A DNA stretch of 6,418 nucleotides. Origin: Naegleria gruberi. Taxonomy: Eukaryota. Both the position numbers and the translations under genes were made by a program. The stretch's first letter is position 1. Every line of letters begins with the position of its first letter. A model generated the notes under the pieces. That model ran no database searches. It was not told where the DNA came from and worked only from the letters and a program-made list of their open reading frames with translations. The DNA lies in assembly GCA_000004985.1 (NCBI GenBank), contig GG739154.1. One strand, 5' to 3'. Below, in pieces: positions 485-5,794 of the stretch.

Positions 485-787
485 ATGAGAAAACTAATCC
501 TTCTCCTAATTGCTCTCTTCCTGATTGCTAGCTATCAAACCGTCACTGCTCAATGGTATGGTGCCTACAATGCTGCCTTCAACGCTGCAACCACTCCATG
601 GATGGCCACAACTGGAGCTTACAATCCTGCTCTCTACAGCAATGCCTACATGGGTGCCAACTCTTTCACTCCTTATTTGGCCACCTCTGCTGCAACAAGC
701 ACAATTCCAATTCTTGCAAATATGCAAGCAAGTAGTGCTGCCTTCAATACTTGGTCAACTATGCCATATGGAGGTATGTATTGGTAA
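485..787 (+). CDS. Secreted low-complexity (Ala/Tyr/Asn/Thr/Ser-rich) protein, 100 aa. The N-terminal signal peptide MRKLILLLIALFLIASYQTVTA has a probable cleavage site before QW.
   Basis: There is an uninterrupted ATG-to-TAA ORF. It opens with a classic n/h/c signal peptide. Codon usage is Caenorhabditis-like (GCT/GCC, CCA, GGA, TTC, CTT/CTC). An A-rich context (aaaacaATG) precedes the start. AATAAA lies at 853..858, about 66 nt after the stop. A weak TATAAT sits at 395..400. The overlapping ORFs 506..727(-), 525..821(+) and 553..735(+) are alternative-frame artefacts. Alternative model: a GTATGT donor at 774 could splice to TTTCAG at 1043..1048, which would give a ...PYGG-VYQ* C-terminus. 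Confidence 0.55.
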   Translation: MRKLILLLIALFLIASYQTVTAQWYGAYNAAFNAATTPWMATTGAYNPALYSNAYMGANSFTPYLATSAATSTIPILANMQASSAAFNTWSTMPYGGMYW

Positions 788-1104: not shown

Positions 1105-1281
1105 TTATTGCCAACAGCAAACATAATTACCAATATAGAGAGGGAGGCACCAACAATTACAACCATCGATACGAAAATTAAGCTCACACGTTCCACAACA
1201 CCAACCAGCTTCACTGAAACTAACGAGAGTTGTTCCAATAAGTACTAGAACCAATAATAGGTGCAACAAGTTCATATTCAT
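1105..1281 (-). CDS. Speculative small secreted Cys-rich peptide, 58 aa: MNMNLLHLLLVLVLIGTTLVSFSEA | GWCCGTCELNFRIDGCNCWCLPLYIGNYVCCWQ. It has 8 Cys and 3 Trp in a 33-aa mature part.
   Basis: The ORF has an ATG at 1281..1279 and a TAA at 1107..1105. It has signal-peptide-like n/h/c architecture followed by a knottin-like Cys spacing. A TTTAAATA (TATA-like) motif lies on the minus strand at 1316..1323, about 35 nt upstream of the ATG. A minus-strand AATAAA lies at 989..994, about 110 nt past the stop. Caveats: the minus strand here is G/T-rich and A-poor, so stops are rare and Cys/Trp/Val/Leu codons are expected by composition. Codon usage (TTG, TTA, CTA, GGT) is not the Caenorhabditis-preferred set. 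A second overlapping ORF in another frame (1050..1238) argues for a compositional artefact. Confidence 0.2.
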   Translation of the reverse strand: MNMNLLHLLLVLVLIGTTLVSFSEAGWCCGTCELNFRIDGCNCWCLPLYIGNYVCCWQ

Positions 1282-1544
1282 TCTTTTATTTGGACTAGCA
1301 ATCAAATCACCGCTGTATTTAAAGATACTGGGAGATTGATATGGTTGGAAAATTGCTTAAAATTCTCAAGTATATATGGAAAATGTACAGATTGCATTAA
1401 AAACACAAAATGTGGAAGTGCTCTATCTTGTCAAATTTCCTATTTTATGGAAAAATTTATGAAATTCTCTCTCAATAATTGTAAACTAGTTCAAATTTTT
1501 TTATCAAATTTGGAAATACTCTTTGTTTGTTTTTGGAAACACAC

Positions 1545-1751: not shown

Positions 1752-2640
1752 NNNNNNNNNNNNNNNNNNNNNNNNNNNNNNNNNNNNNNNNNNNNNNNNN
1801 NNNNNNNNNNNNNNNNNNNNNNNNNNNNNNNNNNNNNNNNNNNNNNNNNNNNNNNNNNNNNNNNNNNNNNNNNNNNNNNNNNNNNNNNNNNNNNNNNNNN
1901 NNNNNNNNNNNNNNNNNNNNNNNNNNNNNNNNNNNNNNNNNNNNNNNNNNNNNNNNNNNNNNNNNNNNNNNNNNNNNNNNNNNNNNNNNNNNNNNNNNNN
2001 NNNNNNNNNNNNNNNNNNNNNNNNNNNNNNNNNNNNNNNNNNNNNNNNNNNNNNNNNNNNNNNNNNNNNNNNNNNNNNNNNNNNNNNNNNNNNNNNNNNN
2101 NNNNNNNNNNNNNNNNNNNNNNNNNNNNNNNNNNNNNNNNNNNNNNNNNNNNNNNNNNNNNNNNNNNNNNNNNNNNNNNNNNNNNNNNNNNNNNNNNNNN
2201 NNNNNNNNNNNNNNNNNNNNNNNNNNNNNNNNNNNNNNNNNNNNNNNNNNNNNNNNNNNNNNNNNNNNNNNNNNNNNNNNNNNNNNNNNNNNNNNNNNNN
2301 NNNNNNNNNNNNNNNNNNNNNNNNNNNNNNNNNNNNNNNNNNNNNNNNNNNNNNNNNNNNNNNNNNNNNNNNNNNNNNNNNNNNNNNNNNNNNNNNNNNN
2401 NNNNNNNNNNNNNNNNNNNNNNNNNNNNNNNNNNNNNNNNNNNNNNNNNNNNNNNNNNNNNNNNNNNNNNNNNNNNNNNNNNNNNNNNNNNNNNNNNNNN
2501 NNNNNNNNNNNNNNNNNNNNNNNNNNNNNNNNNNNNNNNNNNNNNNNNNNNNNNNNNNNNNNNNNNNNNNNNNNNNNNNNNNNNNNNNNNNNNNNNNNNN
2601 NNNNNNNNNNNNNNNNNNNNNNNNNNNNNNNNNNNNNNNN
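1752..2640. other. Assembly/scaffold gap, 889 N.
   Basis: The run of n is uninterrupted. The ORF-track entries 1603..2649, 1709..2884 and 1739..2788 are mostly X and are artefacts of translating through the gap. Confidence 0.99.
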
Positions 2641-4545: not shown

Positions 4546-4551
4546 TTTATT
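4546..4551 (-). terminator. Minus-strand AATAAA (TTTATT on the plus strand) polyadenylation signal for the 4694..5611 gene.
   Basis: It lies about 143 nt downstream (on the minus strand) of the TAA at 4696..4694. No closer canonical hexamer is present. Confidence 0.35.
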
Positions 4552-4693
4552 GTTTACAATTTGTGTTTAAATACTAATGTTACATCGTTCCTCACAACTC
4601 TACACTACTTTATCTCAGTAAACTTTAATAAAAACACCTTTCTTAATTGAGTTTGACGAATTGATCAGTTCAATAATAATAATTTTACTGAGA

Positions 4694-5611
4694 TTAGTGT
4701 AATCTAGTTTTTCCACTACCTGGACATCTTTCTGGACAAGTATTTAAATCAGCATCGTGGAATAAAAAGTGCATTGTTGTGAACATGGTAAGACTACTTT
4801 CATGCTTCATACAATCATCAGAACAAAAGTTCTTACAGAATAACCATGGAATGAATGGACCTTCCCATTGACCAATTGGATAACATTCTTGAACACTGTG
4901 TGAATAGAATAAGACAGCAGAAACTTGACCTTCATGATACATTGGAATAACTGGAACCAAAGTTTTACTCCAACCACTCAAGTGTGGAGCAGTGTAAACA
5001 TCATACCCAAAGTGGGTTCCCATCCCTGATATGCAGGCCCCTTTAATGAATTGACGAGCAGTAGCTAACTTGTCAGTAAGTGGAATTTCAAAATTAAGCT
5101 TTCCTGGTTGGACAATTAAACGATCACCAATTGGTCCTCCATAAATGTCAGTATCTAAAGAGCATGCAAACTTTGGATCACGAGTAGCAATATCAATTTG
5201 ATATCTATCTTTGGAGAGCTTGGTCCAAAATCCTGGAACAGTTGATCCATTCTTTAATTCCTCATGTAATTGAACTCCAAATCCACTCAATTGTCCCTTA
5301 TTGGTATAATAGACAATAACTCTATTATTAATATATGGAATGCCCAAATATTCATGACATACACGAGCACCATCTAACAATTTCCATTCATTAGAGGCAA
5401 CAGCAGCACTTTCATTCAATGGAATTGGAGTTTTGCTGAAGAATGTATGTGTCAAACGATCACCCAATCCTTGGAATTTAGTAACCGATCTAGTATTTTG
5501 AATCATCTTGTCCAATTCAATACCTTGAAGTTCAGAGACAAGCATCATCATGATAACAACAACAGCAAAAGCCACCTTCATCATCACAGAATTATTATTA
5601 ATTCTCATCAT
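4694..5611 (-). CDS. Secreted Cys-containing protein of unknown family, about 305 aa if it starts at MMRINNNSVMMKVAFAVVVIMMMLVSELQG. The mature part has about 10 Cys, N-glycosylation sequons (NES, NGS) and a C-terminal Cys cluster (CKNFCSDDC...CPERC).
   Basis: This is the longest clean ORF in the window (the track gives 4694..5674). The first ATG after a consensus minus-strand TTTTCAG (5667..5661) is at 5611..5609. An alternative start is the ATG ATG at 5584..5579, immediately before the hydrophobic core. There is a clear signal peptide. Codon usage is Caenorhabditis-like (GGA, CCA, CTT). The TAA stop at 4696..4694 is followed by a minus-strand AATAAA. The antisense ORFs 5447..5647(+) and 5550..5795(+) are artefacts. 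I do not recognise a catalytic motif (no HExxH, no GxSxG, no GNHE). Confidence 0.75.
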   Translation of the reverse strand: MMRINNNSVMMKVAFAVVVIMMMLVSELQGIELDKMIQNTRSVTKFQGLGDRLTHTFFSKTPIPLNESAAVASNEWKLLDGARVCHEYLGIPYINNRVIVYYTNKGQLSGFGVQLHEELKNGSTVPGFWTKLSKDRYQIDIATRDPKFACSLDTDIYGGPIGDRLIVQPGKLNFEIPLTDKLATARQFIKGACISGMGTHFGYDVYTAPHLSGWSKTLVPVIPMYHEGQVSAVLFYSHSVQECYPIGQWEGPFIPWLFCKNFCSDDCMKHESSLTMFTTMHFLFHDADLNTCPERCPGSGKTRLH

Positions 5612-5660
5612 CGGAACGGGTGCGCGATTTTTTATGTTTTTTTTTAATGGAGATGAAACT

Positions 5661-5667
5661 CTGAAAA
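5661..5667 (-). promoter_or_regulatory. Consensus nematode 3' splice acceptor TTTTCAG on the minus strand, just upstream of the 4694..5611 CDS. It is either an SL trans-splice site or the acceptor of an upstream 5' exon.
   Basis: The plus strand reads ctgaaaa at 5661..5667. The minus strand therefore reads TTTTCAG|AGTTTCATCTCC..., followed 46 nt later by the first ATG. The in-frame extension of the ORF upstream of this site (MQVFRVSSPLKKNIKNRAPVP) crosses the acceptor and is therefore unlikely to be coding. Confidence 0.35.
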
Positions 5668-5794
5668 CTTGCACAATCTATGAAGTATCCAGTCCGTCCT
5701 TAAGAGTGGAACGGTGTGTTGGGCAACTCCTTTATGTTTGTGTGAGGTCCTTCCTTGAGGCCAATGTTAGTAATAGATTGCAATTATTATTTTA

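Follow-up and report, generated by a model that had tools for sequence, protein, structure and literature searches.

The stretch of DNA analysed here (the window: 6,418 nucleotides, the whole of scaffold GG739154.1 in the Naegleria gruberi assembly GCA_000004985.1, with a GC content of 33%) carries on its minus strand a genuine, expressed and correctly annotated gene, NAEGRDRAFT_60085, whose parts are listed in Table 1 together with the other features of the window. In the list of open reading frames (ORFs) and their translations, an uninterrupted minus-strand ORF begins with GTG and occupies positions 4694..5674; its first ATG is at 5611 and its stop codon at 4694-4696. The encoded protein matches the NCBI entry 'hypothetical protein NAEGRDRAFT_60085 [Naegleria gruberi]' with 100% identity over its full length. 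Gene, organism and translation are established. A model that had seen only the letters and the ORFs (the sequence-only reading) had proposed a real gene for a secreted, cysteine-rich protein of ~300 amino acids, and the intact ORF of 305 codons with its signal-peptide-like N-terminus bears this out; it had also taken the DNA for that of a nematode, whereas the protein is that of a heterolobosean. N. gruberi has a paralogue, NAEGRDRAFT_81112, with 57% identity, and Willaertia magna an orthologue with 48% identity. The Willaertia gene contains one 53-nt intron (GTAAGT...TATAG, positions 6589-6641 of its contig, L001), placed between the PV and IP codons of a conserved LxPVIPMY motif, whereas the Naegleria gene has none; an intron was thus gained or lost within Heterolobosea. 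Downstream, the AATAAA hexamer lies 142 nt past the stop codon, and its position coincides with the lower bound (4546) that the sequence-only reading had given to the gene.

Table 1. Features of the window, with positions numbered from its first nucleotide.
Feature	Position	Strand	Remarks
Complete intronless coding sequence, N. gruberi NAEGRDRAFT_60085 / XP_002668305.1	4694..5611	(-)	305 aa + TAA stop
Signal peptide, residues 1-30 (predicted)	5522..5611	(-)	n-region MMRINNNSVMMK, h-region VAFAVVVIMMMLV, c-region SELQG
Repeat 1, residues 48-156	5144..5470	(-)	LGDRL ... PLN..A...W ... C85 ... LG90 ... YYTxxGQxSGxG ... R144 ... C150
Repeat 2 and C-terminal Cys-rich extension, residues 157-300	4712..5143	(-)	From family alignments and hhalign
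Codon of His200, invariant	5012..5014	(-)	66/66 diverse family members
Codon of His281, invariant	4769..4771	(-)	66/66 diverse family members
C-terminal cysteine cluster C259-x3-C263-x3-C267 ... C292-x3-C296	4724..4837	(-)	All at least 95% conserved
3' untranslated region (UTR), candidate polyadenylation hexamers (putative function)	4546..4629	(-)	ATTAAA 4624-4629, AATAAA 4546-4551
TTTTCAG heptamer, chance match in 5' UTR or promoter-proximal region	5661..5667	(-)	Not supported as splice acceptor
In-frame TAG	5678-5680	(-)	Ends the reading frame 22 codons 5' of the ATG
Conserved upstream block AACACACCGTTCCACTCTTAAGGACGGACTGGATACT, candidate promoter or cis-regulatory element of the gene family	5684..5720	(-)	73-109 nt 5' of the ATG
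Second shared upstream block TAATTGCAAT...TTACTAACA	5765..5786	(-)	Exact 8- to 10-mers in common with Willaertia L001 5860-5877
100-aa ORF with clear signal peptide (MRKLILLLIALFLIASYQTVTA), then Ala/Thr/Asn/Tyr-rich low-complexity region	485-787	(+)	No Pfam match
Small candidate ORF, ~58 aa from first ATG, hydrophobic leader, dense Cys pattern (GWCCGTCELNFRIDGCNCWCLPLYIGNYVCCWQ)	1105-1305	(-)	No Pfam match
Run of N, assembly gap, 889 bp	1752-2640		Interrupts plus-strand ORF starting at 1603

The gene belongs to a large family. When 1.84 billion cluster representatives (clusters at 50% identity) were searched exhaustively with an HMMER profile, 768 of them matched at E<=1e-3; 459 did so at E<=1e-10, and 205 at E<=1e-30. 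The named hosts are Naegleria and Willaertia (Discoba), Vermistella antarctica (Amoebozoa) and Telonema subtile (Telonemia), and most of the remaining members lie on transcript-length environmental contigs of ~1 kb, some with terminal A-runs. A scan of viral contigs found no relatives. The suggestion that the protein might be lineage-restricted was therefore wrong, given 768 representatives that extend to Telonemia and Amoebozoa. The absence of any recognisable domain family, by contrast, was judged correctly: a Pfam-A search with the query returned 0 families at E<=10, the Pfam matches among 21 homologues were isolated ones in single members (all at E>=0.037), ten longer distant members gave 0 Pfam matches, an NCBIfam search gave 0 matches, and sequence and profile searches of the PDB gave nothing significant. 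Literature searches on locus tag, accession and peptide motif turned up no account of such a family. We consider it very probable that NAEGRDRAFT_60085 is a secreted, functional member of a conserved family that has so far gone undescribed.

Conservation was scored over 66 diverse family members with 18-57% identity to the query, and it is strong and of the purifying kind. Eight residues are invariant in the alignment (G90, G198, H200, P220, C259, C263, C267 and H281). At least 88% conservation is seen at a further set of cysteines and glycines (C85, C150, C193, C292, C296, G106, G110, G162 and G191) and at R144, P177, M197, D204, M224, Y225, Q241, W249, N261 and T279. Comparison of the profiles of residues 48-156 and 157-300 with hhalign (probability 96.4%, E 1.3e-9, 66 columns) shows that the domain is an internal duplication; it pairs LGDRL with IGDRL, PLNxxxA with PLTxxxA, C85 with C193, L89-G90 with M197-G198, and the YYTxxGQxSG hairpin with PMYxxGxxSA. 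The motifs of repeat 2 read IGDRL ... PLT..A ... C193-I-x-G-M197-G-x-H200-x-x-x-D204 in its first part and P220-x-x-P-M224-Y225 ... Q241 ... W249-E-G-P ... T279-x-H281 in its second. The two halves differ in what they conserve: the invariant side chains of ligand type (H200, D204, M197, M224, Y225, Q241 and H281) are all found in repeat 2 and the C-terminal extension, and apart from R144 and Q107 every invariant or near-invariant polar or metal-ligand-type side chain lies in the C-terminal half.

The protein has nine cysteines, of which eight are conserved across homologues and one, C243, is private to NAEGRDRAFT_60085. The sequence-only reading was thus right to call it cysteine-rich, and slightly high in counting about ten; the C-terminal CxxxCxxxC...CxxxC cluster that it pointed out is present, and its three conserved-looking blocks are all there as conserved cores of the family alignment. 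The five cysteines of the cluster, together with C85, C150 and C193, presumably form four disulfides, as the conservation of all eight suggests. As a working definition, members of the family have a signal peptide, two (I/L)GDRL-PLT-A-W-C-xG repeats, eight conserved cysteines including CxNxCxxxC...CxxxC, and an invariant histidine in each of MGxH and TxH; NAEGRDRAFT_60085 has all of these features.

The N-terminus has the character of a signal peptide. A basic n-region is followed by the most hydrophobic 15-mer of the protein, residues 11-25 (mean Kyte-Doolittle value 2.6), and the cleavage site in Table 1 is a predicted one. Other family members have the same layout, a Met and a signal peptide followed at once by the first conserved motif: in those that start with Met, a median of 28 residues precedes this motif, and a hydrophobic 12-mer is present at the N-terminus of 51 of 62. 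Some relatives contain tandem copies of the domain, C-terminal Cys-rich tails, or hydrophobic C-termini that resemble transmembrane segments or anchors, an architecture that is consistent with an extracellular location. Among P0026, P0066, P0089 (758-801 aa), P0035 and P0128, the whole domain is present in two or three tandem copies in some, and C-terminal Cys-rich, EGF-like regions with a hydrophobic anchor are present in others. In P0159, one distant member, residues 38-85, before the family domain, form a ~48-aa Cys-rich module (C..L...CGAAR..F.CAQC.GEHQQ.L.AAGCTNS.I..WC). The same module recurs with 65% identity at residues 116-164 of P0202, a protein of 646 aa that includes a GH5 cellulase domain, and is an uncharacterised accessory module common to secreted proteins of one organism.

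For the three-dimensional structure, AlphaFold2 gave a predicted local distance difference test score (pLDDT) of 87.4 and a predicted template modelling score (pTM) of 0.80 for the full protein, and 91.0 and 0.89, respectively, for residues 46-305. A Foldseek search against solved structures returned no significant neighbour for either model (best E 0.47, template modelling score below 0.2). Structure prediction followed by a structural search had been proposed by the sequence-only reading as a check on whether the protein was unclassified, and these confident models with no significant solved neighbour agree with that view. The top structural matches, all weak and below significance, were to curved beta-sheets of a generic kind (Rhs shells, ChuS, VioE, LolA/LolB) and to alpha+beta units of small size (BamE, BLIP). 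The predicted fold would thus be new relative to the PDB, and to that database only. The novelty is at the level of protein family and fold; no new biological principle is demonstrated.

Published proteomics bear on expression and, less directly, on copper. NAEGRDRAFT_60085 (XP_002668305.1) and NAEGRDRAFT_81112 are both listed in a whole-cell proteome of N. gruberi (PMC9035749 supplement). In the comparison of cells starved of copper by neocuproine, both are marked 'IC', that is, present in one condition only. Their entries in the neocuproine column fall within the second (DOWN) block, which also contains COX1, COX2 and cytochrome c (PMC9035749). The direction of change was deduced from block order, the legend of the sheet giving UP and then DOWN (PMC9035749); the BCS column follows this order, with AOX, known to be up-regulated, listed in its first block and NgDJ-1, known to be down-regulated, in its second (PMC9035749). 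Read in this order, the data place both paralogues among the proteins seen in copper-replete cells and not in starved ones. The NAEGRDRAFT_60085 protein is made, and there is a weak hint that its abundance depends on copper.

The conservation pattern suggests how such a protein might work. The product would enter the secretory pathway via its N-terminal signal peptide and fold into a compact, disulfide-stabilised domain of ~255 aa, extracellular or endolysosomal. This domain arose by tandem duplication of a ~100-aa unit with the pattern (I/L)GDRL - PL(T/N)xxxA - W/F - Cys - (L/M)G - beta-hairpin. Of the two copies, the N-terminal one appears to be mainly structural, and the C-terminal one has gained two invariant histidines, H200 and H281, with the five-Cys C-terminal extension as a cap. 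Both histidines are flanked by near-invariant residues (D204, M197, M224, Y225, Q241 and W249), and H200, D204 and H281, with or without Met, could form a metal centre. On this view, the gene product would be an extracellular metalloprotein, most probably with enzymatic activity, that may depend on copper. This is the best explanation that we can offer; taken whole, with the metal-centre mechanism, it is a tentative one that falls somewhat short of likely. That the invariant histidines form a metal or catalytic centre is likewise a possibility that we favour cautiously and would not call probable. Copper as the metal is doubtful. The most detailed version, in which NAEGRDRAFT_60085 is the founding member, from an amoeba that can be cultivated as a model, of an undescribed metalloprotein fold, extracellular and widespread in heterotrophic protists, with two repeats, four disulfides and a His/His(/Asp/Met) copper or zinc centre in the C-terminal repeat, acting as a secreted cuproenzyme or metallo-hydrolase in, for example, prey digestion or extracellular redox chemistry, is improbable as a complete statement.

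Several points weigh against the metal-centre explanation. The metal site is putative, and what bears on it is conservation and the copper-status proteomics; invariant histidines could equally serve as general acid/base or structural residues. Secretion is called from hydrophobicity and the architecture of the homologues. The copper hint is weak because ~100 proteins fall into the same 'IC down' class, because neocuproine inhibits growth, because neither paralogue is in the list for BCS, an extracellular chelator, and because the up/down direction was deduced from block order.

Two other functions have to be considered. The domain could be a non-catalytic extracellular binding or adhesion module, for instance a lectin-like protein or ligand carrier for recognition of prey or substrate or for a hydrophobic ligand, with structural or ligand-contacting histidines. 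We regard this as unlikely, while taking it seriously: the structural matches are all below significance, and two invariant histidines with conserved Asp, Met, Tyr and Gln at ~20-30% identity would sooner be expected in a catalytic or metal site than on a binding surface. Rather less probable is a metal-independent secreted hydrolase or lyase, such as a digestive enzyme with which a bacterivore attacks prey cell walls, in which H200 and H281 would be a general acid/base pair. The named hosts (Naegleria, Willaertia, Vermistella and Telonema) are indeed all phagotrophic protists, the N-terminal Cys-rich accessory module of one distant member recurs in a protein that has a GH5 glycoside hydrolase domain, and on one contig a Peptidase_C1 gene fragment lies near a family member. 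This evidence from context is anecdotal, however; there is no similarity to any hydrolase family in sequence or fold, and besides D204 no conserved Ser, Cys, Glu or Asp stands out as a nucleophile. That the gene is an annotation artefact or a pseudogene on a small, gap-containing scaffold, without functional product, can be set aside: the scaffold is only 6418 bp long and has an 889-bp run of N at 1752-2640, but the 305-codon ORF is intact with all family-invariant residues kept, a paralogue and a Willaertia orthologue are known, and mass spectrometry detected the protein.

The 5' end of the gene deserves separate treatment, since the sequence-only reading had seen in a TTTTCAG heptamer, said to lie 46 nt upstream of the start, either an acceptor for spliced-leader (SL) trans-splicing or the trace of a missing 5' exon. 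The heptamer is present, with 49 nt between its G and the ATG. The window contains five copies of it where 2.5 would be expected, a number reached or exceeded in 24 of 200 dinucleotide shuffles. An alignment with the upstream region of the Willaertia orthologue has CTATCAA in its place, without the AG. Upstream of the heptamer, at a distance of 17-53 nt, is a conserved block (5684-5720) with a local alignment score of 38 against the Willaertia magna upstream region, compared with 20.1 +/- 2.2 (maximum 29) in 500 dinucleotide shuffles; a check of the window sequence found no ATG between this block and the annotated start. Because the homologues have Met and their signal peptide just ahead of the first motif, there is no need to postulate a missing coding exon. 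The chance-level heptamer, the conserved block, the lack of an intervening ATG, the in-frame TAG and the starts of the homologues together speak for a promoter close by and for the N-terminus as annotated. Translation from M1 is supported; it might possibly begin at M10/M11 (5579-5584), with the same outcome for the signal peptide.

SL trans-splicing is known in Euglenozoa and is not known from Heterolobosea. A literature search found no report of it in Naegleria. Cis-introns of the ordinary kind occur in N. gruberi at about 0.7 per gene (PMC5862402). One in the 5' UTR of NAEGRDRAFT_60085 is formally conceivable. The idea of a lineage-restricted, secreted nematode protein, trans-spliced at TTTTCAG or lacking an upstream coding exon, had in its favour the heptamer close to the ATG and a frame open for 21 further codons upstream; it has next to no probability now that the sequence is that of N. 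gruberi, the heptamer is at chance frequency and not kept in Willaertia, the frame is shut by TAG with a conserved promoter-like block immediately upstream, the homologues have their Met and signal peptide at the corresponding place, and no account of trans-splicing in this organism was found. Since the organism is Naegleria and not a nematode, a search for SL1/SL2 junctions or for orthologues in related nematodes does not apply, and the annotated N-terminus stands.

Conserved non-coding blocks are found upstream of the Naegleria gene, the Willaertia gene (L001 5860-5910) and an environmental gene (L010 20-44), with the core CTCTTA(C)AAGGACGGAnnGGATAC. The environmental contig L010 carries a 53%-identical homologue, P0002, and a weaker copy of an AGGnnGGAC core lies ~60 nt upstream of its gene. 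In the window, the degenerate core [AG]GG[AG][ACG]GGA[CA] has only two sites, both upstream of NAEGRDRAFT_60085. The blocks with the CTCTTA(C)AAGGACGGAnnGGATAC core are candidates for a promoter or regulatory element specific to the family.

Elsewhere in the window, the plus-strand ORF at 485-787 may be another small secreted protein gene, to judge from its translation. The small minus-strand ORF at 1105-1305 is overlapped by a 59-aa plus-strand ORF. The assembly gap falls inside the plus-strand ORF that starts at 1603, which makes this neighbouring gene unreadable.

The family comprises at least 768 clusters at 50% identity across Discoba, Amoebozoa and Telonemia, and it appears highly expressed in environmental protist communities. 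Its size, the confident predicted structure, the lack of a Pfam model and the lack of a structural neighbour in the PDB make it a clean candidate for the definition of a new domain family or fold. The significance is tempered by the many protist genes that are likewise unannotated. If the invariant His pair is a metal centre, the family would be a new class of extracellular metalloprotein, and its N. gruberi member is experimentally tractable and already detected at the protein level. With the correction from nematode to Naegleria, the question of trans-splicing falls away.

We compared the family with the known systems that come closest to it. LolA/LolB, VioE, ChuS and ependymin-type open beta-sheet proteins, which bind ligands, are among these; an ependymin-related (PF00811) or LolA-type assignment was rejected, there being no PF00811 match, and the published N. 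gruberi EPDR is another protein. Small alpha+beta repeats of the BLIP, BamE and PepSY type gave insignificant scores, have no sequence relationship to the family and are without its Cys framework and His pair. A histidine brace as in lytic polysaccharide monooxygenases (LPMOs) or X325 proteins was rejected because the mature NAEGRDRAFT_60085 protein does not begin with His; once the signal peptide is removed, family members start with x(0-3)-I/V-G-D-R-L. We did not adopt a blue-copper Cys/His/His/Met site, since C193 corresponds to C85 of the other repeat and the eight conserved cysteines are most simply read as four disulfides. In M23 enzymes, H-x-G-x-D and (P)H-L-H-F motifs hold the His/Asp/His zinc ligands. 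The LAS/M23 peptidases (lysostaphin, LytM) resemble the Naegleria family in being secreted and beta-rich, and otherwise in motifs only, H200-F-G-Y-D204 recalling H-x-G-x-D and S-T-M-H281-F recalling (P)H-L-H-F. HxxxD is present (H200...D204), but TxH (T279-M-H281) stands in place of HxH, and homology was rejected with an hhalign probability of 0.04%, no Pfam match and no structural match. The His/Met copper sites of CusF, PCuAC, CopC and PHM CuM belong to proteins with no sequence or fold similarity to the family, whose own site is putative. They do have a similar set of ligand-type residues (2 His and 2 Met with Trp and Tyr) and an extracellular or periplasmic location, and the copper-status-dependent abundance seen in N. 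gruberi proteomics, though weak, is a further point of likeness.
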